A stretch of DNA of 43,179 nucleotides from a virus (lineage: Duplodnaviria; Heunggongvirae; Uroviricota; Caudoviricetes): IMG/VR virus record IMGVR_UViG_2561511241_000008, positions 1-43,179 of that record, one strand, 5' to 3'. The notes below the pieces were generated by a model that saw only the letters and a program-made list of their open reading frames with translations, was not told where the DNA came from and did no database searches. Position 1 is the stretch's first letter, and every line of letters starts with the position of its first letter. A program made the translations under genes and the position numbers. Positions 1,009-43,179 of this stretch are shown here, piece by piece.

Positions 1009-1083
1009 GTCCTCTTAGTTAAATGGATATAACGAGCCCCTCCTAAGGGCTAATTGCAGGTTCGATTCCTGCAGGGGACACCA
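1009..1083 (+). tRNA. argW: tRNA-Arg (anticodon CCU)
   Basis: 75-nt cloverleaf read by eye: acceptor stem GTCCTCT/AGGGGAC, anticodon loop CTCCTAA, T-loop GGTTCGATTCC, 3' CCA. Confidence 0.9.
1054..1069. repeat. 16-bp segment of argW T-arm (TTGCAGGTTCGATTCC), copy 1 of 2
   Basis: exact 16/16 match to 42944-42959. Confidence 0.8.
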
Positions 1084-1244
1084 TTTATCAGTTCGCTCCC
1101 ATCCGTACCAGTCCGCAAAATCCCCTGAATATCAAGCCTTCCGTAGATTCACAGTTCGTAATGGTTCGCGTCAGATCGTTGACAGCCGCACTCCATGACG
1201 GGTAAAAAGTGGATAAAATAATTTTACCCACCGGATTTTTACCC

Positions 1245-18735: not shown

Positions 18736-18777
18736 TGAACCGCCCCGGGTTTCCTGGAGAGTGTTTTATCTGTGAAC

Positions 18778-19668
18778 TCAGGCTGCCAGATCATTGTTTC
18801 CGATGGAAGCATAATAAGCTTTTTCTGCTTCTGCCGGAGGAGTATGGCCCAGCCTTCCCAGCAATCGTCGATTGTTATACCAGTCCACCCACGTTAGTGT
18901 GGCCAGTTCCACTTCTGCACGGTTTTTCCAGCTCTTACGGTGTATTACCTCCGCTTTGTAAAGACCATTGATGCTCTCAGCCATCGCGTTGTCATACGAG
19001 TCGCCTGTACTCCCTGTTGATGCCAGTAATCCGGCTTCTTTTAGTCGCTCCGTATAGGCCAGTGACACATACTGAGAGCCTTTATCGCTGTAATGGATGG
19101 TGCCAGACGGACGACGGGCCCACAACGCCTGCTCCAGCGCATCCAGCACGAATGTCGTTTCCATAGACGATGAGACCCGCCCCCCCACGATGTATCCGGC
19201 AAACACATCAATGATAAACGCCACATAGACGAAGCCCTGCCATGTGCTGACGTAAGTAAAATCAGCCACCCACAGCTGGTCAGGACGTTCTGCCACGAAC
19301 TGACGGTTTACGCGGTCACCTGTGGCAACGGTTTTCCGGCTGACGGTAGTGCGGACCTTTTTACCCCGGAGAACACCGGCAAGTCCCATAACCGCCATGA
19401 GGCGCGCCACTGTACATCTGGCCACCCTGATTCCTTCCCGTAACAACTGACGCCAGACTTTACGCACACCGTACACCTGATGATTTTCATCGTATACGCG
19501 CTGTATCTCTCTCTTCAGCCAGTCATCGTGCTGCGCACGGGCACTGCGTTTATCCGGATGATGTCGCTGTTGCTGACAATGGTAATACGTTGACGGGGCA
19601 ATATGCAGTTCGCTGCATACCGGTCCGACCCCGTACTGCTCACGCAGCTTATCCAGCAGTGGCATCAT
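18778..19668 (-). CDS. IS3-family transposase OrfB (DDE catalytic domain)
   Basis: 296 aa with IS3-type motifs; ATGATG start overlapping orfA-frame end. Confidence 0.85.
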   Translation of the reverse strand: MMPLLDKLREQYGVGPVCSELHIAPSTYYHCQQQRHHPDKRSARAQHDDWLKREIQRVYDENHQVYGVRKVWRQLLREGIRVARCTVARLMAVMGLAGVLRGKKVRTTVSRKTVATGDRVNRQFVAERPDQLWVADFTYVSTWQGFVYVAFIIDVFAGYIVGGRVSSSMETTFVLDALEQALWARRPSGTIHYSDKGSQYVSLAYTERLKEAGLLASTGSTGDSYDNAMAESINGLYKAEVIHRKSWKNRAEVELATLTWVDWYNNRRLLGRLGHTPPAEAEKAYYASIGNNDLAA

Positions 19669-19746
19669 TTTTTCCAGAGGCGGTCGAACTCCGCCTTCGC
19701 AAAATAAGCGGAAGCCTGGCGAAGGATATCGTTACTGCGGCGCAGT

Positions 19747-19992
19747 TCACGATTTTTCACGTTCCAGCTCTTTCAGACGCTGACGTTCAGCGCTGGTGAG
19801 CCCACCATCACCGCCCCCGGTATCCCGCTCATGCTGGCGAACCCAGACACGCAGAGTCTCCGGCGTACAGCCAATCTTTGGGGCAATGGAACAAATTGCC
19901 GCCCACTGTGAGTCATATTCATCCTGACTTTCCAGAACCATACGAATCGCCCGCTGACGGACTTCGGGGGAAAAACGAGTATTTTTAGTCAT
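19747..19992 (-). CDS. IS3-family OrfA (helix-turn-helix), apparently truncated
   Basis: [21 protein letters not shown]... IS629-type OrfA N-terminus; ORF stops at 19747 while the OrfA-like tail continues in another frame. Confidence 0.75.
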
Positions 19993-20043
19993 CCTGTTTA
20001 CCTCTTTCTCAGGGAGTTTAGTCTCCAGGATTTCCGGGGCGGT

Positions 20044-22035
20044 TCACGCTGCAACCTGAGCATCCGTCTGTGCCTGGAATGCTTTAACCTGAATGGCTGC
20101 CTGCTCGTTCTGCGCTTTCTGCAATTCAGCCTGACCAGCAAGAAGCTGACCTTGCGCTGCAACCATAGCCGGATCTGGCTGACTGGCCTGTTGTTGTTTC
20201 GCCTGTTCAACCATCTGCTGTTCTTCAGGCGTTCTCGGCTTGATAACGCCAGACAGAAGCAACTGATTGCGGTTGTATTCTTTCAGGTCGTCCATCCCTT
20301 CGCCGTCCATATTGTCGAGAATCATCGACGATACAAGGTCGTGCTTCGGCGTTCCTGGTGGGATAAGTGCCAGCATGGAAAGTAACGACTTAACCGTTGC
20401 GTCACGGCGAGTAGCGAACGACTGACCGACATCGACAGTCACTTCATAGTTACCCTGCGAAAGGTCGTTAAGCGCGATAACCTGCCCTGTCTGACGGTCA
20501 ACCACTTCACCAGTCATCAGCGCCACGTCATCGCTGCCGTCCTCATTAACGATACGCATCGGCGTATCGCTGCCATAGACTTCACGCGCCATAGAAAGCC
20601 ACACAACGCCAGCGCGACGCATAGATTTAGCCATGTTGTCCATGTAGATATAGGACTGCGTGTCCATCCGGTTAAAAATGCTATCAACGGTATCAGTAGC
20701 GACGTTGCTCGGCATGTTCTCAAGCTGCGACGCACCTGTAATTTGCTGAATAGCCGTTCCGGTGTACTGCAATAGCCCGGCAAGAGCTGGAGGCATTTGT
20801 GTCGGAGGCGTATAACTGCTGACCTGAGCCTGCGCAGTAATATCTCCGTTTTTGTTTTTCAGACTGACCATCGGCAGGAACGCCGGGCGCTTTTTGTTGC
20901 GCTCCGCCCAATGAGTGGCGAGAGGACCAGGAATCATGTCAACATCAACTACAGGAATGCCATCACCGCCAGCCTGAGTAGCGTTATCTGCAATCATGGA
21001 AACCATCAGGTTCTCAAGACGCTGTGCATCCATCGCTTTTGCTGCGTGTCCTTCAATTCGCTCCTGATTATCAACAAATGAGCGACGCCCATATACCGGG
21101 ATGAGAGGAATATGTTCGCCCGGAATACGCTTCGGTTCTTCCAGCCATTCAGCGCCAGACAGAAGACCGCAATAAACTCGGCGTTTCTTCACTGTCCGCT
21201 CACCAATCAGTTCGAATGCACCATCGGTCAGCTCGTCGACAATATCTTTGATTTGCTCTTCATCATAGATTGCCGTTTCTCCGCTAACAGGGTTACGCCA
21301 TGCTGTGAGCTTCACCTTCTCTATGCGAACTTCGTAGTAGCGACCAACATAGATGGCATCGGTCGTTGACCAGTCATATTGAGTGCCAGTGTCATCACGA
21401 GAAAGGCTTGCCGCGGTGGAATCAGGGTATTCAGCCTCGAACGCTTTAGGCGTCATGGAGAACATTTCCATAGCCCACATAGCATCAGAGCGGTCATATT
21501 GCTTGCTGTCCTGATCGAAGAAGACGCATGTTGCTGGGTCGTAAACCGGGAGAAGGCTTATACGGCGTTGCTCGTTACTCGGATCCATTTCATCTTCGTA
21601 ATCGGCACACATGCGGAAACAACCGAATCCACCCGTTACAGCATCATCAAATGCGTTATCACACGCTTCGCCACCGGATGTTTCCTGATAATCAGCGCGG
21701 AATTTGCCGTTCATCTTTTCGGCTAACGCTTCCGATGCCTTATCGTCCTTCGGTCTGAATTTAACGCTGATGCGATTCTGTCGATACTCGCCAATGATGC
21801 GATCACATTCACGGGCAATCTTATTCAGTTCAAAACGCGGATAATGCTCAAACCTGCCTTCATCAAATGAGTAACCAGCGTTTGTGCTGCCTTCCCACTG
21901 TGCGCCGGATACCCGGACGAAACGTTGAGCCTCAATAATCTGCTCACGCATATCCTGCGTTGCTGACCAGGCATTATCAAAGTTGCACAGCACCTTGCGA
22001 TGCCAGTCAGTCATCTTTCTATCATCAGCCATCAT
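20044..22035 (-). pseudogene. Portal protein (P22 gp1-like), 3' end interrupted by IS; reading frame terminates at TGA inside the IS inverted repeat
   Basis: N-terminal ~663 codons intact; stop at 20044-20046 lies in IS terminal repeat. Confidence 0.8.
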
Positions 22036-36976: not shown

Positions 36977-37095
36977 AAACAGATACCAAACGAGATGGGT
37001 TTGGCGGTGATGTGAATTGCAGCAGCAACGACAGCAACCAGAAGATCAGCATCTGGCGCATTACCACCAAAGCCATTTCACATGAGGAAAATATC

Positions 37096-37404
37096 ATGAC
37101 GGTAATCGTGTACGGAAAATCAACATTTGCAGGAAATGCCAAAACTCGCCGTCATGAGCGGCGCAGAAAGCTGGCTATCGAGCGTGATGCTATATGCAAC
37201 ATCATCGATTCGATCTTCGGCACAGACAGTGAGGAACCTGTTCAGGAAGCCCCGAGAAAGCGTTTAAGCATTTCTGAAAAAGCAATATCACTCGGCATCA
37301 TTAGCAAATCAAATACAGATGCGAATAGCGGAAGCGTTTGTTTGCCTGAAGTTGCACTGTATGCTGCTGGTTACAGAAGGCAAAAACTAATTACAGCGAG
37401 GTAA
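37096..37404 (+). CDS. N: N antiterminator (P22 gp24-like, arginine-rich motif)
   Basis: MTVIVYGKSTFAGNAKTRRHERRRKLAIERD... matches P22 gene 24 product as recalled; GAGGA 7 nt upstream; ORF-track start at 37012 (GTG) rejected. Confidence 0.8.
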   Translation: MTVIVYGKSTFAGNAKTRRHERRRKLAIERDAICNIIDSIFGTDSEEPVQEAPRKRLSISEKAISLGIISKSNTDANSGSVCLPEVALYAAGYRRQKLITAR

Positions 37405-37406
37405 AA

Positions 37407-37685
37407 ATGAAGCCTAGCATAACAATCAAGCCAGCGAGAGATAATAGCAGGAACCGCCGCAGAGAGGCCAGGAAGGCAGAAAGAGCAGAGAAGGAAAACA
37501 AGAGCCGGGAGGAGAGAAAGGCAGAGATTTTGGAAAAAGGAGGATTGGCTGCCGTGAGGGGTGAAAAAGCAGCTGAATTAGCAGTAGCTCACGAAAAGAC
37601 AGAGATTGACAATAATTCTGGTGGAGATGCAATGTTTAAAGTTGTCAATCACGCCCATCAACGAAACCCCAAAAAGAAATGGTAA
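37407..37685 (+). CDS. Hypothetical highly charged 92-aa protein
   Basis: Lys/Glu/Arg-rich ORF directly after N. Confidence 0.4.
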   Translation: MKPSITIKPARDNSRNRRREARKAERAEKENKSREERKAEILEKGGLAAVRGEKAAELAVAHEKTEIDNNSGGDAMFKVVNHAHQRNPKKKW

Positions 37686-37688
37686 TCA

Positions 37689-37710
37689 ACCCGTCCAAGA
37701 CGGGTTTTTT
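37689..37710 (+). terminator. Intrinsic terminator (tL1-like)
   Basis: ACCCGTC-CAA-GACGGGT followed by T6. Confidence 0.65.
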
Positions 37711-37742
37711 ATTGCAAGCAAACCACTTATTTGAGGTGAGAT

Positions 37743-38213
37743 ATGACAAAATCATGGAGCGTACCTTTTCCTGAATCAGAAACTGAACATGAGGGAATGC
37801 CTGTTTTCTGGAGATTCCAAGCGACAGTTGAAGAAGATGGAATCAAAATATTCGCACTTCAATATATAGCTTTTCATCAGACAGAGCATTATGCATGGTT
37901 GGTTCCTGCGCATTGGATTGTTAATTTTAAACCAGCACCAAATCAGTGGTTACAGGAATGGAAACAAAGGAGAAATAGATATGCAATTAAGAAAGTAGCA
38001 AAAAATGCAGAAAGATCTTTTGCATTCCCAACGAAGAAACTTGCTATTGAAAGTTTATTGCGCCGGAAGAAATACCATTTAATGAGGATAAAACAAGATT
38101 TGGCTGTTGTATCAACTCTTGTTGATGGGATGAAAAATATTGATACATCAACACCAGATATTGAATATAACTTTGGACACAACCAAGAAACAGAAAATTG
38201 GGTATTCTACTAG
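37743..38213 (+). CDS. Hypothetical 156-aa protein (AT-rich moron)
   Basis: own RBS GAGGTGAG; AT-rich coding sequence. Confidence 0.5.
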   Translation: MTKSWSVPFPESETEHEGMPVFWRFQATVEEDGIKIFALQYIAFHQTEHYAWLVPAHWIVNFKPAPNQWLQEWKQRRNRYAIKKVAKNAERSFAFPTKKLAIESLLRRKKYHLMRIKQDLAVVSTLVDGMKNIDTSTPDIEYNFGHNQETENWVFY

Positions 38214-38259
38214 GCCGCATAGTCGGCCTTTATTTTTGGCACAAACAACAGAGGTGAAT

Positions 38260-38394
38260 ATGAACGCAGTTGAATTTACAAAATGGATGGCAGAGCAAGA
38301 TATCACAGGAGCCGACGAAAAGGCTGTGTACTACATGGCTCTGCTATGGATTCACAAAGCAAAAGAGGCTGCAAATGCTCTTGGAGATAAGTAA
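38260..38394 (+). CDS. Hypothetical 44-aa protein
   Basis: GAGGTGA before ATG at 38260; inside ORF 38140-38394. Confidence 0.3.
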   Translation: MNAVEFTKWMAEQDITGADEKAVYYMALLWIHKAKEAANALGDK

Positions 38395-38582
38395 TGAAAG
38401 TAAAAATAACTGCTTCTAATACCAGTTTTGTTAGTGCTGGTGATATTACAGAAGTAATAACAAACCATGATGGAACCCAAGTTATGTGGTCTGATTTTTG
38501 TAAAAGATATGAGCGAGTTAGTTGGTGTAAACTCGTATGGGGCGTCGAATACGAAGAATTACCTGAAATGCATGACGAATAA
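38394..38582 (+). CDS. Hypothetical 62-aa protein
   Basis: ORF only. Confidence 0.35.
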   Translation: MKVKITASNTSFVSAGDITEVITNHDGTQVMWSDFCKRYERVSWCKLVWGVEYEELPEMHDE

Positions 38583-38716
38583 GCACTGTGTATTCATTCC
38601 AACGAGTGAATACACGGAGCAATGTCGCTCGTAACCAAACAGGAGCCGACTTGTTCTGATTATTGGAAATCTTCTTTGCCCTCCGGTGTGAGGGCAATTT
38701 TTTTGACGGAGGATAT

Positions 38717-39685
38717 ATGAGTGAAGTAACAGATTTAGTTGTTATTGAAAAAGCAAATGCAATGACTGTATTTCAGTCTGCCGACCAGATTGAAGAAATC
38801 CTTCAAAAGGTTGAACGTGAAGTTATGTCCTTTGTGCCTGATATCACAACGGCAAAGGGCAGAAAGGAGATCGCTTCTCTGGCGTATAAAGTTGCGCAGA
38901 CGAAAACATATCTCGATGGTCTTGGAAAAGACCTTGTTGCTGAACTGAAGGAAATTCCAAAGCTAATTGATGCCAACCGCAAGACAGTGCGCGATCGCCT
39001 TGATGAGCTGAAAGCCAAGGCACGCCAGCCTCTTACTGATTATGAAGAGGAACAGGCGCGAATTAAAGCTGAAGAAGAAGCTAAGGCAGCAGCTGAAGCT
39101 CTCGCAAAGCAAATTGAGTCTGACCATGAAATAGCGATTTTGATGGATCGCGAATTTGACCGCCAAAGAGAAGAGGCAAGACTCAAAGCGGAGCAGGAAA
39201 AGCGAGAGCATGAAGAACGCTTAAAAAGAGAAGCTGAAGAGAAAGCCAGAGCTGAAGCCGAAGCAAAGGCAAAAGCCGAAATTGAAGCAGCAGCAAGGCG
39301 AGAAGCAGAAGCTAAGGCCGCAGCGGAACGTGCAGAGCGTGAACGCATTGAAGCCGAGCAACGAGCACAGCGCGAAACAAAAGAGGCAGCAGAACGAGCT
39401 GAAAGAGAAAAGCAGGCGGCAATTGAAGCAGAACGCCGAAAAGCACAGGAGGAGGCTGAACGAATCCGGCGCGAGGCTGAAGCAAAAGAGCAAGCCAGAA
39501 TAGCAGAAGAAAAAAGAATCAAGGAAGAAGAAGAGCGTAGAGCAAAGGATAAAGCTCACCGGAAAGAAGTAAATAACAAAATACTTGCTGACCTTATCAA
39601 GGTTGGCGCATCAGAAGATGTTGCTAAAAATATCATAACAGCCATCGTAAAAGGCGAAGTATTCGCAACAAAAATAACCTACTAA
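38717..39685 (+). CDS. Coiled-coil protein with Ala/Glu/Lys/Arg-rich repeat core
   Basis: ORF 38663-39685, ATG at 38717 after GGAGGA; central EAKAKAE-type repeats. Confidence 0.5.
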   Translation: MSEVTDLVVIEKANAMTVFQSADQIEEILQKVEREVMSFVPDITTAKGRKEIASLAYKVAQTKTYLDGLGKDLVAELKEIPKLIDANRKTVRDRLDELKAKARQPLTDYEEEQARIKAEEEAKAAAEALAKQIESDHEIAILMDREFDRQREEARLKAEQEKREHEERLKREAEEKARAEAEAKAKAEIEAAARREAEAKAAAERAERERIEAEQRAQRETKEAAERAEREKQAAIEAERRKAQEEAERIRREAEAKEQARIAEEKRIKEEEERRAKDKAHRKEVNNKILADLIKVGASEDVAKNIITAIVKGEVFATKITY

Positions 39686-39709
39686 TAAAACCAACATAAG
39701 GAACCACCC

Positions 39710-39841
39710 ATGATTTACGCAATCGCGGGAGGCGCTCGCATGGGTGCCTTCCAATTAAATGAATCTTTACTTGAACGAATCACCCGTAAATTACGTGACG
39801 GATGGAAAAGAGTTGAGGTCTTGTTATGCGCAATGAAATAG
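39710..39841 (+). CDS. cIII: CIII-like protein
   Basis: hand translation ...ESLLERITRKLRDGWKR... matches lambda CIII core; below ORF-track cutoff. Confidence 0.6.
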   Translation: MIYAIAGGARMGAFQLNESLLERITRKLRDGWKRVEVLLCAMK

Positions 39842-39978
39842 CCATTAATCACCAGATGCTTCGCGCTGCACAAAATAAAGCAGTAATAGCCAGATTTATT
39901 GGTGATTCCAAAATGTGGCTTGAAGCAAATAAAGAGATGAAATCAGCTATCAACCATCCGTGGTATCGCAGGAAATGA
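39826..39978 (+). CDS. kil: Kil-like protein
   Basis: hand translation MRNEIAINHQMLRAAQNKAVIARFIGDSKMWLEANKEMKSAINHPWYRRK; IARFIGDSKMW resembles lambda Kil as recalled. Confidence 0.55.
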   Translation: MRNEIAINHQMLRAAQNKAVIARFIGDSKMWLEANKEMKSAINHPWYRRK

Positions 39979-40145
39979 GTTTTACAGACAACTGGTCAGA
40001 CGAAGAATTCATTCGTCAGATGAAAGAATTAATCGGTAACGAAGGAGATATTCATGTCACTTGCAACCACAGTGAAGGAGAGCAAGTTACAGAGACGCAT
40101 GTACACGCAGCAGGCGTTAATGTATCGCCAGAAGGGAGATCGTGA
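39975..40145 (+). CDS. Hypothetical small protein coupled to kil (ATGA overlap)
   Basis: ORF 39960-40145, ATG at 39975. Confidence 0.3.
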   Translation: MSFTDNWSDEEFIRQMKELIGNEGDIHVTCNHSEGEQVTETHVHAAGVNVSPEGRS

Positions 40146-40234
40146 AGGTGTTCGCGTATTTTTAAATGCGGCAAAGACTGAAGTATTAAATCAGCGTTAT
40201 TTCCTTGGGCCGTGTCCATTCTGAGAACAATCAT

Positions 40235-40840
40235 ATGAGCAAAGAATTTTACGCAAGACTGGCAGCTATTCAGGAGAATCTGAACGCGCCAAAGAATCAG
40301 TACAACTCATTCGGTAAATATAAATACAGAAGCTGCGAAGACATTCTTGAAGGCGTTAAGCCGTTACTGAATGGCCTGTTTTTATCAATCAGCGATGAAG
40401 TTGTGTTGATTGGTGATCGGTATTACGTGAAAGCCACGGCAACTATTACCGATGGTGAAAACAGTCATACGGCAACCGCTCTTGCACGAGAGGAAGAAAG
40501 CAAGAAAGGAATGGATTCTGCACAAGTTACGGGAGCTACAAGCTCTTATGCACGCAAGTATTGCCTCAATGGTTTGTTCGGCATTGATGATGCGAAAGAT
40601 GCAGATACCGACGAGCATAAACATCAGCAGAACGCAGCAGCAAAGCAATCAAAGCCATCACATACACCTGAACAGGTTCTAAAAGCATTCACTGACGCAG
40701 CATTGCAGAAAAACACCGTAGAAGAGCTTAAACAGGCGTTCGCCAAAGCGTGGAAGATGCTCGAAGGCACACCGGAGCAGCACAAAGCGCAGGACGTTTA
40801 CAACATCAGACGAGACGAATTAGAAGGAGCGGCTGCTTAA
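40235..40840 (+). CDS. erf: Erf single-strand annealing protein (P22 Erf-like)
   Basis: MSKEFYARLAAIQENLNAPKNQYNSFGKYKYRSCEDILEGVKPLL... matches P22 Erf as recalled. Confidence 0.85.
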   Translation: MSKEFYARLAAIQENLNAPKNQYNSFGKYKYRSCEDILEGVKPLLNGLFLSISDEVVLIGDRYYVKATATITDGENSHTATALAREEESKKGMDSAQVTGATSSYARKYCLNGLFGIDDAKDADTDEHKHQQNAAAKQSKPSHTPEQVLKAFTDAALQKNTVEELKQAFAKAWKMLEGTPEQHKAQDVYNIRRDELEGAAA

Positions 40841-41223
40841 TGGCACATTCGATTACTGTAAGACTAAACAAACCCGCAAGAGAGTTTCAGGCCGGGGAAA
40901 ATATCGGATTCAACATCCGTGCTGGCGTTCAGTATTACGATCGCCAGACAAAAAAGAAAGAATGGACAAACTACAGCGCCGTTGTATTTGCCAAGCCGGG
41001 AGCGCAAGCGGATTACTACCGTAGTGTTCTTGTTGAAGGTGGCATTGTTGAAATTACCGGAGAAAACATCAGGGTTGATGTTTATCAGGGGCAAAATGGT
41101 CAATCAATCACTCTTGAATTACTGAATGCAAAGATTGGATTTGCAACTTCAGGAAACAGCCAACAGCAGCAAAGTAGCAATCATCAAAATCATCCTGAAT
41201 ACGACGATTCAATTCCCTTCTAA
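40840..41223 (+). CDS. ssb: Single-stranded DNA-binding protein (SSB-like)
   Basis: OB-fold-length protein with Gln/Ser-rich linker and acidic C-terminal tip DDSIPF; TAATG coupling to erf. Confidence 0.7.
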   Translation: MAHSITVRLNKPAREFQAGENIGFNIRAGVQYYDRQTKKKEWTNYSAVVFAKPGAQADYYRSVLVEGGIVEITGENIRVDVYQGQNGQSITLELLNAKIGFATSGNSQQQQSSNHQNHPEYDDSIPF

Positions 41224-41246
41224 AGTAGCAACATAAGGATTCCATT

Positions 41247-41540
41247 ATGCCAGCGCCTCTGTATGGTGCGGACGACGCGCGCCGCTGTTCCGGCAATTCC
41301 GTGTCGGAGGTGCTGGATAAATTCAGAAAAAACTACGATCGGATAATGTCGCTACCGCAGGAAACGAAAGAGGAAAAGGAATTTCGCCATTGTATATGGC
41401 TTGCAGAGAAAGAAGAACGCGAGCGAATTTACCAGACATCAATCCGACCATTCCGCAAAGCCACATATACCCACTTCCCTGAAATTGACCCGCGCCTGCG
41501 TAATTACCGCTCACGCTATGGCGCTATCAGTAATGACTGA
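41247..41540 (+). CDS. Hypothetical 97-aa protein
   Basis: ORF only. Confidence 0.4.
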
Positions 41541-41550
41541 GGAATTTACA

Positions 41551-41715
41551 ATGAGAGGACTTGCATACAATCCCGGCATTCTTCCGGCAGAAATGATTAT
41601 TCGCCAACGCGTAAAGCCAATGCCATCGAGAGAGGAATTGCTTAAGAGAAATTCTTTTCCATCAGTGAATCAAAACAAATATCTGAATGCGATGTTGCGG
41701 AGTGGGAAGAAATGA
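41551..41715 (+). CDS. Hypothetical 54-aa protein
   Basis: GAGG before ATG at 41551. Confidence 0.3.
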
Positions 41716-42404
41716 AACAAATGTCACTAATTGAGATGGATGGATTCCTGAAAGGTAAATGCATCCCACGAGATTTAAAGGTTAACGAAACAAACGCTGA
41801 ATATCTTGTCCGTAAGTTCGGTGAACTTGAATCAAAACTCAACGAGCAGCGTGAGTATTACGAGGGCGTTATCTCGGATGGGAGTAAGCGTATTGCTGAA
41901 CTGGAGAAAAGCGAAGAGCAACTCATCAACGAGCGTGACCATGCTGAGTATGCTTTAGCTGATATGTATTTTGCAGCAACCGGGAACAGGCCGGAATGGA
42001 GTAACTGTTTCAGTTTTTCAGATGCAGTAGATGCCGTAGTTGACAGAATTGCTGATTTAGAAGCTAAACAGCCATCGCCAGTAGTACCGGAAGAAAAACC
42101 AATGCCGAACCCTCCTAGCATGTATGCGGTTGATGCGGTTGCAGCTATTGCAGAGGTGAGAGGCTGGAACGCCTGTCGTGCCGCCATGCTTCATGGTGCC
42201 AAACCTGTAAGCCAGACTTACAAGTTGAACAAGCTGTCGGGCAACTCTCCGGAAACTCCGGATGGTTGGGTTATGGTGCCGAAGGAACCAACTCAGGCCA
42301 TGATTAAAGCGTGGCTATCAGAGATTGCTAACTTTCGCGGTCATGCTGCTGGTTACAGGGCTGCTCTTGAGGCAGCACCACAACTGGAGGTTAACCGTGG
42401 CTAA
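41712..42404 (+). CDS. Hypothetical 230-aa protein
   Basis: ATGA overlap with preceding ORF. Confidence 0.5.
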
Positions 42405-42681
42405 CCTACAGCTTGCTGTCAAAGGTGAATACTTCGATGCCATGATTCGCGGAGAGAAAACGGAAGAGTATCGCCTGTGTAATGACTACTGGAATAAGCG
42501 AATTATGTTCAGGGATTATGACCGACTGATTATCACAAAGGGATATCCGAAGCGCGACGATTCCAGCCGCAGAATTGATGTTCCGTATGACGGATATGAA
42601 ATCAAGACAATCACACATCCCCACTTCGGCGATAAACCGGTAAAGGTATACGCGATAAAGGTGAATATCGGCAATGAATAA
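42397..42681 (+). CDS. ASCH-like small protein
   Basis: GTG start after GGAGG; AVKGEYFDAMIRGEKTEEYR resembles ASCH-domain N-terminal motif. Confidence 0.4.
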   Translation: MANLQLAVKGEYFDAMIRGEKTEEYRLCNDYWNKRIMFRDYDRLIITKGYPKRDDSSRRIDVPYDGYEIKTITHPHFGDKPVKVYAIKVNIGNE

Positions 42682-42753
42682 CAATCCTCGCACTCGCGGG
42701 GATTTCTTTTATCTGAACTCGCTACGGCGAGTTTTGTTTTATGGAGATGATAA

Positions 42754-42921
42754 ATGCACTTCCGAGTCACAGGCGAATGGAATGGAGAGCCATTCAACAG
42801 AGTTATCGAAGCAGAGGACATCAATGACTGCTATAACCACTGGATGATATTGGCGCAGATAGCAAATGCAGACATAACCAATATTCGAATTGAAGAACTG
42901 AAAGAACACCAAGCCGCCTGA
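42754..42921 (+). CDS. Hypothetical 55-aa protein
   Basis: GGAG 7 nt before ATG; followed by short hairpin plus T6. Confidence 0.3.
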   Translation: MHFRVTGEWNGEPFNRVIEAEDINDCYNHWMILAQIANADITNIRIEELKEHQAA

Positions 42922-42943
42922 TTGCGGTTTTTTATTACCTGAT

Positions 42944-42959
42944 TTGCAGGTTCGATTCC
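42944..42959. repeat. 16-bp copy of argW T-arm segment (TTGCAGGTTCGATTCC), copy 2 of 2
   Basis: exact match to 1054-1069; flank does not continue into tRNA 3' end. Confidence 0.8.
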
Positions 42960-42978
42960 CTATTCGGAGATAGCACTC

Positions 42979-43179
42979 ATGCAACACGAACTACAGCCTG
43001 ATTCACTGGTTGATTTGAAATTCATCATGGCCGATACTGGCTTTGGTAAAACCTTCATCTACGACCGGATTAAGTCCGGCGACCTGCCAAAAGCCAAAGT
43101 TATCCACGGTCGAGCAAGATGGTTATATCGTGACCATTGTGAATTCAAAAATAAGCTCTTAAGCCGCGCCAATGGGTAA
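42979..43179 (+). CDS. torI: AlpA/TorI-like excisionase (recombination directionality factor) candidate
   Basis: 66 aa, small basic DNA-binding protein of AlpA type; resembles E. coli KplE1 TorI as I recall it; stop at window edge. Confidence 0.55.
   Translation: MQHELQPDSLVDLKFIMADTGFGKTFIYDRIKSGDLPKAKVIHGRARWLYRDHCEFKNKLLSRANG

Follow-up and report, generated by a model that had tools for sequence, protein, structure and literature searches.

Excision of prophages that carry the KplE1/HK620/Sf6 IntS-TorI recombination module is controlled by the expression of torI, which encodes the recombination directionality factor (RDF, or excisionase, Xis), and the promoter of torI is described as uncharacterised (PMC2951348). 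The same attachment core, CTGCAGGGGACACCAT, has been stated for KplE1, Sf6, HK620, and Kapi1 (PMC2951348; PMC8787464). We analyzed the 43,179-nt viral sequence IMGVR_UViG_2561511241_000008 from IMG/VR over its full length (hereafter the window), with the focus on a 16-mer, TTGCAGGTTCGATTCC, that is present both in the tRNA gene argW near the left end and immediately upstream of torI at the right end. The window is a P22-like (Lederbergvirus-type) prophage inserted in argW through the known KplE1/HK620/Sf6 module, and the main content of this finding is already known, because TorI and the core are identical to those of the described systems. Earlier annotations of the 16-mer are in conflict with each other, since it has been read as an att core (CUS-3), as a part of the pI promoter (HK620, Sf6), and as a boundary sequence (Sf6). 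No crossover takes place at 42944-42959; the 16-mer there is the E. coli form of a tRNA T-arm-derived block, CAGGTTCGATTCC, that belongs to the xis/torI leader.

The two copies of the 16-mer, at positions 1054-1069 and 42944-42959, are exact and both are on the + strand, and a search of the window that tolerated two mismatches found no further copy (two copies versus 0.02 expected from shuffled sequences). The left copy is internal to argW: it begins with 2 nt from the end of the variable loop, runs through the 5' T-stem strand (GCAGG) and the T-loop (TTCGATT), and stops 2 nt into the 3' T-stem strand. The right copy, which includes the leader block at 42947-42959, is separated from the torI start by 19 nt. 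Past position 42959 it continues as CTATTCGG, whereas argW reads TGCAGGGG at the same point, thus the second copy is not a regenerated tRNA end. The tRNA 3'-end sequence CTGCAGGGGACACCAT, which corresponds to the 16-nt core of KplE1, HK620, and Sf6 and to the 'attP core' annotation of HK620, is found once in the window, at 1069-1084 (+ strand). At the opposite prophage end, the open reading frame at 42979-43179 (+ strand), whose stop codon constitutes the last three bases of the window, encodes a 66-aa protein that is 100% identical to TorI of HK620, Sf6, and the K-12-type locus, and the closest genomes annotate this gene as torI.

The sequence to the right of the window was read from relatives. 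In a genome identical over the last 880 bases of the window, the torI stop codon is followed by 73 bases, then by CTGCAGGGGACACCAT, and then by dsdC. The same layout, with the core 74 nt on, was observed in E. coli K-12, in phiv205-1 (where it is annotated as attR), and in every IMG/VR locus of sufficient length; among the latter, the core borders on at least six different flanks to its right. In the virion genome of HF4s, the 16-mer (2348-2363), xis (2383-2583), the core (2657-2672), and int (from 2833) are arranged without interruption, and the HK620 and Sf6 virion genomes have this order too, with the attP core annotated. Comparison of both junctions, with the attL copy at 1069-1084 and an attR copy 74 nt past torI in every relative examined, identifies CTGCAGGGGACACCAT as the recombination core and predicts attR 74-89 nt past the last base of the window (window-equivalent 43253-43268); a second arm-type site and an IHF-like site also lie beyond the window in the relatives. 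The initial annotation of this DNA had pointed out the exact argW repeat, had argued that its flank does not continue into the tRNA 3' end, had taken the gene at the window edge for an AlpA/TorI-like excisionase, and had expected the core at the tRNA 3' terminus and again after that gene upon rightward extension; these expectations agree with the above comparison.

An alternative assignment is given by the CUS-3 record (CP000711.1), in which the 16-mer serves as the attachment core (attL core at 1-16, attR core at 40192-40207). The 16-mer is an exact direct repeat at both prophage ends, and the CUS-3 record ends precisely at the window-equivalent position 42959; however, a crossover at this point would cut argW short and strand torI in the chromosome. 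The corresponding argW-16-mer-torI deletion junction was found in none of the 5,426 complete E. coli genomes. Likewise, no contiguous reciprocal junction of the terminator, 16-mer, tRNA end, and int (terminator-16-mer-TGCAGGGGACACCATTTATC, without torI) was identified in E. coli or in 50,697 phage records, and two matches to it at 80% coverage or more are two-piece joins about 385 bp apart with the normal torI-containing layout. Recombinant junctions at 42944-42959, which the initial annotation had named as refuting its view, are thus missing from these genome collections. Moreover, the virion genomes contain xis and join at the CTGCAGGGGACACCAT core rather than at the 16-mer, genomes with a right end identical to that of CUS-3 continue past the 'attR core' with torI and then dsdC, and CUS-3 is itself counted among the phages that share the KplE1 module (PMC2951348). 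The substrates used by the Ansaldi laboratory for in vitro excision, a 220-bp attL and a 135-bp attR (PMC3509656), map to 1049-1268 and from 43156 to 111 bases past the window end, respectively. Since about 200 bp lie between the 16-mer and the attR substrate on its right, in vitro excision is independent of the upstream 16-mer, which is located outside the DNA sufficient for recombination. We therefore give almost no credence to the 16-mer as a genuine or alternative attachment core, and the CUS-3 'attL/attR core' labels appear to be misassigned given the lack of 16-mer junctions, the virion join at another core, and the attR substrate without the 16-mer. The CUS-3 'complete genome' has neither the excisionase gene nor the true attR, because the 16-mer (loci L002, 2049-2064, and L003, 1-16; window-equivalent 42944-42959 and 1054-1069) was used as its core.

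The right end of the module is also the subject of several other observations. Among 80 IMG/VR viral contigs with torI (L026-L105), 28 stop exactly at its stop codon, like the window, therefore attR, located 74-89 nt further on, is systematically lost from gene-boundary prophage calls that end at this codon. The P arm contains CCCCTGC (L001, 3425-3461; window-equivalent approximately 43224-43260), the reverse complement of the core GCAGGGG located about 19 nt downstream; this motif is kept across genera (0.87 identity), is preceded by an IHF-like ATCAA motif, and might be an additional site for the integrase or form a hairpin in a transcript across the crossover point. HK620 (hkaB, 1324-1464) and Sf6 (gene 17) have an annotated small open reading frame from the xis stop region across the attP core (window-equivalent approximately 43172-43312), and this putative frame is split by integration in the prophage. 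In K-12, the attR tRNA fragment (L006, 985-999) is the pseudogene pawZ in RefSeq, and the 'cryptic prophage CPS-53' feature ends one base earlier. In Proteus hauseri, a tRNA-Arg(CCT) gene (L023, 3995-4067) follows the TorI homolog at a distance of about 1.3 kb and is encoded on the other strand, unlike on the E. coli attR side.

For the comparative analysis of the leader, divergent TorI modules were gathered from species-representative genomes, public assemblies, and phage records. A scan of IMG/VR for divergent modules yielded E. coli-identical loci only, which served for statistics on polymorphism and boundaries; 75 of 80 E. coli-type loci have an exact 16-mer. The block CAGGTTCGATTCC is located 18-19 nt before the xis start codon ATG and usually 6-7 nt before the Shine-Dalgarno sequence, which in the window is GGAG at 42966-42969 (+ strand), 6 nt past the block. 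Block-bearing modules were identified in E. coli, Enterobacter, Citrobacter, Serratia, two Pantoea, Edwardsiella, Hafnia, and Cedecea, as well as in Salmonella phage g341c (TorI 51% identical) and Erwinia phage phiEt88 (39%). The TTCGATT motif is unchanged in all 12 aligned divergent modules. In this alignment, the mean pairwise identity of AGGTTCGATTCC is 0.92, compared to 0.86 for the arm sites, 0.85 for the core, 0.56 for the third codon positions of torI, 0.52-0.59 for the spacers, and 0.30 for the DNA just upstream, these values being descriptive, as the sequences are phylogenetically related. The nucleotide identity of xis to its E. coli counterpart is 0.50-0.70 in phiEt88, g341c, Hafnia, and Edwardsiella. 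The copies from different genera have in common a base that is not present in the tRNA, the third C of TTCCC instead of TTCCT, and because of this common base the block copies are explained by descent from one preserved copy and not by repeated capture. The copies in Serratia and one Pantoea match the tRNA 2 nt further (GATTCCTG), which suggests a longer tRNA-derived ancestor of the block. In addition, Erwinia phage Midgardsormr38 has the block twice in tandem with a 16-nt period (CAGGTTCGATTCCCGT and CAGGTTCGATTCCCAC; L130, 1753-1785), and the Enterobacter module has a degenerate second copy, GCTCGATTCAT, ahead of the block (L011, approximately 2165-2195).

Several lineages have lost the block. 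It is absent from the sampled modules of Klebsiella, Cronobacter, Mixta, Rahnella, Dryocola, Tatumella, Arsenophonus, and Proteus, in which another gene abuts xis. In Dryocola (L015, approximately 2470-2500), comparison with loci L012 and L014 points to a 27-nt deletion of the block between short CTGG repeats (..TTGCCTGG|AGGAAAGCATG), which looks like one route of block loss. Every block-bearing module has an argW-type core, and all IntS-like relatives down to about 60% identity target argW; the more distant P4 and F116 differ in gene order. The observed pattern of near-invariance and loss argues that the block is under purifying selection across the Enterobacterales, yet dispensable.

The sites of the recombination proteins have changed within this family independently of the leader. 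In the P' arm of phiEt88 (L129), CGATGTAAC/GTTAC repeats replace the GTTCG sites of TorI and the arm sites read GGGCATA rather than GGGTAAA, whereas the Hafnia P' arm (L107) is unrelated to that of E. coli; this family has therefore exchanged the specificities of its RDF and arm sites while its argW core stayed the same. Neither phiEt88 nor Hafnia has GTTCG-type sites at the homologous P' positions and both keep the block; phiEt88 and g341c have their arm sites changed to GGGCATA and keep the block; and Mixta has five GTTCG sites and no block. Across the aligned modules, the block thus appears to follow neither the changes of the excisionase sites nor those of the integrase arm sites.

This pattern bears on the possibility that the block is a TorI operator for autoregulation through the pentamer GTTCG. 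The TorI sites in attL have the cores GTTCG, GATCG, or GTCCG (PMC2951348), and TorI already represses intS through such sites. The block contains an RGWYCG-type motif, GGTTCGAT (42949-42956), that is close to the attL site I4, and in Enterobacter, Pantoea stewartii, and Edwardsiella a second GTTCG or GTCCG is located 12 nt on, next to the Shine-Dalgarno sequence. However, the pentamer is not independent evidence, since any copy of the T-loop contains GTTCG, and the second motif is not conserved. The conserved block, at 13 nt, is also longer than an 8-nt TorI site, and it does not change together with the RDF sites of its module: phiEt88, with no GWYCG in its P' arm, and Hafnia keep it unchanged, and it is missing from Mixta despite the five sites there. 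We consider autoregulation through this block quite improbable.

The HK620 and Sf6 records instead place the 16-mer within a promoter, pI, possibly activated by CII/C1 and driving xis-attP-int. HK620 has a 'promoter, phage integration' feature at 1664-1702 and a 'cII protein' binding feature at 1689-1701 (TTGCCTGATTTGC, TTGC-CTGAT-TTGC), the second TTGC of which is the first 4 nt of the 16-mer, and Sf6 has the feature 'pI; possible integrase expression promoter'. Such a promoter would fit with PtorI being described as uncharacterised (PMC2951348) and with the excision of the defective KplE1 prophage upon torI expression. The annotated repeats are, however, 5 nt apart, and their sequence varies: the window has TTAC-N5-TTGC, with TTAC as the first repeat, at a position that is polymorphic among E. 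coli phages. The cII sites of phage lambda have the form TTGC-N6-TTGC. A consensus scan around the block detected no sigma-70-like promoter on either strand. In other genera, the TTGC repeats and the upstream DNA are not conserved (0.30 identity), and what is conserved instead is the would-be spacer. Moreover, a promoter ahead of xis would co-produce Xis and Int, which is ill-suited to integration, and intS has its own mapped promoter (PMC2951348). For these reasons the pI interpretation seems improbable to us.

The upstream boundary of the 16-mer gives some weight to the idea of a functionless relic, either of an older tRNA-derived att site or of the event that joined xis-attP-int to the early-left operon. 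Homology to HK022/933W-type phages ends at an intrinsic terminator at 42911-42936 (+ strand; computed, and annotated as tL4 in the HK022 record), which closes the early-left gene block, and the 16-mer begins 8 nt past the end of this homology, within the 'boundary sequence' annotated in Sf6. The additional 2 nt of tRNA match in Serratia and one Pantoea hint at a longer ancestral fragment, many lineages lost the block and kept the module, and the 16-mer is not needed for in vitro excision (PMC3509656). On the other hand, 13 nt are near-invariant where xis is 50-70% and the neighboring non-coding DNA 30-59% identical, the shared third C of TTCCC points to a single preserved copy, and one phage has a tandem duplicate. 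A relic origin and a present function are compatible, while a relic without function is, in our judgment, rather improbable. Of the two suggestions of the initial annotation, a recombinase or excisionase binding element or a relic of an earlier insertion, the pure relic is thus unlikely given the conservation, and the minimal attR from the literature rules out a binding element that is essential for recombination; binding by the integrase or another factor is a possible role.

The near-fixed distance of the block to the Shine-Dalgarno sequence and ATG would also be consistent with an action in the torI mRNA, as a mimic of the T-loop or as a short anti-Shine-Dalgarno element (UUCC:GGAG). In the RNAalifold prediction, UUCC is paired with GGAG in 9-10 of the 10 leaders, and the Edwardsiella copy can pair GACAGG with CCTGTC around a loop; however, the consensus structure of the 10 leaders comprises only 4 bp at -0.83 kcal/mol and has no compensatory change. 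The 3' strand of the T-stem is absent in E. coli and most other modules, which precludes a T-arm hairpin, and neither an RNA family (Rfam) nor a tRNA was detected at the leader block, ARAGORN giving argW only. With no conserved 3' stem strand, trivial pairing of 4 bp, and no Rfam or ARAGORN match, no foldable T-arm or cloverleaf is present, and the RNA T-arm mimic was rejected as a candidate. The probability that the block acts in the torI mRNA is in our view very small.

We favor, with low confidence, a reading in which the block acts at the DNA level as a mimic of an attB half-site. In argW, TTCGATTCC is located directly left of TGCAGGG; the attP of most relatives has TTCGATGTA in the same register (alignment columns 334-342; loci L013, L014, L016, L129, and L130), with the T-loop-like TTCGATGT left of TGCAGGG. 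The E. coli attP can be written as GTAGATGTC-TGCAGGG-GACACCATT, which forms an imperfect inverted repeat with a 7-bp center, and TGCAGGG is the probable 7-bp overlap with the flanks GATGTC and GACACC. Based on the attP register and the inverted repeat, we infer that the T-loop may constitute the left core-type half-site and that the block may be a copy of the corresponding attB half-site. The TTCGATTCC of the block equals the argW sequence left of the inferred overlap; however, the block has no adjacent overlap or right half-site. As a separate observation, attP resembles the tRNA over about 26 nt, a 3-nt substitution block limits the perfect identity to 15-16 nt, and the E. coli sequence GTAGATGTC is more degenerate.

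According to the proposed mechanism, the block would mimic the left half-site of attB and the integrase would bind it via its core-binding and catalytic domains, possibly with a bridge to the pair of arm-type sites located at the torI stop codon. The bound integrase would modulate torI expression, or would stay held next to the gene, and integrase occupancy would thereby be coupled to the production of the directionality factor. We put forward this modulation of torI by an integrase-bound half-site mimic tentatively, as a possibility with the balance of probability against it. A more specific version, in which the block is a decoy half of attB and the integrase bridging to the arm sites at the torI stop would loop out the ~200-bp gene and set the RDF level, is doubtful. 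The structural conclusions on the att sites and on the location of the block in the torI leader are secure, and in the complete explanation, i.e., the known module, the att assignment, the selected leader block, and the half-site mimic taken together, our confidence falls slightly short of an even balance.

Several points weigh against this explanation. The IntS and TorI footprints reported in the accessible part of PMC2951348 are within attL and attR only. The conserved CAGG (4 nt) left of the proposed half-site occupies positions that are not conserved at the attP C-site, and because it falls outside the half-site the idea leaves a part of the block unexplained. Core-type sites alone usually bind integrase weakly. 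The overlap and the half-site were assigned from sequence rather than from mapped cleavage. Furthermore, roughly half of the sampled divergent lineages have no block, and any function of the block is therefore accessory. To these points are added the phylogenetic relatedness behind the identity values and the reading of the right flank from relatives, the window itself being a mosaic.

The window contains the prophage, and the annotation of a close relative places such a prophage between yfdC-argW and dsdC. Of the mosaic sequence, only the last 6,087 nt (37093-43179) reach 99.95% identity to ETEC4085. ARAGORN identified a single tRNA gene in the window, tRNA-Arg(CCT), at 1009-1083 (+ strand); this is argW, annotated as tRNA-Arg in relatives, which is intact and has its 3' end regenerated by the prophage. 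The gene intS, annotated as such in relatives and encoding a P4-type tyrosine integrase that is 98% identical to the integrases of HF4s and Kapi1, adjoins argW in the same orientation (1245-2393, + strand). The intervening attL region has by sequence the five TorI sites and the TAAA-containing arm sites of the module. The TorI sites I1 (AGTTCGCT) and I2 (AGTCCGCA), which are 12 nt apart, are located at 1090-1117 (+ strand) as transferred from PMC2951348 relative to the intS ATG, and I3 (AGTTCGTA), I4 (GGTTCGCG), and I5 (AGATCGTT) at 1153-1180 (+ strand) adjoin the -35 element of PintS (TTGACA, 1179-1184, + strand). The cores of I1 to I5, with coordinates from the same source, are GTTCG, GTCCG, GTTCG, GTTCG, and GATCG. 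The IntS arm-type P' sites (PMC2951348) are GGGTAAAA (1200-1207), TTTTACCC (1222-1229), and TTTTTACCC (1236-1244), and their positions are kept across modules. At the right end, the start of the published minimal attR substrate (PMC3509656) covers 43156-43179 (+ strand; primer attR-IHF2, 43156-43175), and the first of the two arm-type P sites of attR, GGGTAA.., begins at 43174 (+ strand) and is cut by the window end. The prophage is probably defective, being interrupted by a 1,311-bp element of the IS3 family of insertion sequences (18736-20046) with 25-nt terminal inverted repeats TGAACCGCCCCGGG... at 18736-18760 and 20022-20046. This element interrupts DNA that runs unbroken inside the portal gene of the ETEC4085 relative, which has the same element elsewhere, inside its antirepressor gene.

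What is added to the knowledge of this module is evidence that the att-core reading of the 16-mer is wrong, and that the block appears to be both under selection across genera and independent of the RDF and arm-site specificities. The att result will not surprise a specialist. It has practical consequences: the exact repeat that is found at the ends of argW prophages, by eye or with repeat-based tools, is the wrong one; a phage for which the 16-mer is taken as the att core, as in CUS-3, loses its excisionase gene and its true attR; and the true junction is predictable at 74 nt past torI. The 13-nt block just upstream of torI, being conserved like the known integrase sites, is a candidate control element and a concrete handle on torI control. 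If the decoy half-site reading were true, argW-targeting phages from E. coli to Erwinia would share a conserved feedback from the integrase to the RDF, and this feedback would be the control of torI that is missing in a module where torI expression alone decides excision.

Among the known systems, KplE1 (CPS-53) of E. coli K-12 shares with the window an identical TorI, the core, the five TorI sites, and the attL arm-type sites, and its right end has the same succession of the 16-mer, 19 nt, torI, 74 nt, and the core. The two differ in that KplE1 is a 10-kb defective remnant, whereas the window contains a P22-like prophage of about 42 kb, and in the unrelated DNA upstream of the 16-mer, which is yfdT/ypdJ in K-12 and an ASCH/ea gene block with a terminator in the window. 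In the literature searched, including the accessible parts of the published KplE1 work, the 16-mer upstream of torI is not described. In the virion genomes of HK620, Sf6, HF4s, and Kapi1, the module is 94-100% identical at the nucleotide level; the 16-mer precedes xis, and the attP core separates xis from int. These genomes differ from the window in the reading of the 16-mer region, given in the records as a putative 'pI' with a cII site (HK620, Sf6) or a 'boundary sequence' (Sf6), the first repeat being TTAC in the window. CUS-3, likewise a P22-like prophage inserted in argW, shares the right-end sequence of the window as far as 42959; however, its record takes the 16-mer as the att core and leaves out torI and the true attR. 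As in P4-type integration into tRNA genes, the identity block covers the tRNA 3' end and argW is intact after the insertion, but the present module has a second, separate tRNA-derived segment, which stems from the T-arm, lies about 290 bp from the first with xis in between, and has no part in tRNA regeneration. Finally, the proposed control of torI resembles the lambda-type regulation by recombination proteins at promoters that overlap att, as at KplE1 PintS, which is repressed by IntS and TorI (PMC2951348), in that a recombination protein would control an adjoining recombination gene; unlike at PintS, the proposed target is the RDF gene, and the candidate site is located about 200 bp outside the minimal attR.

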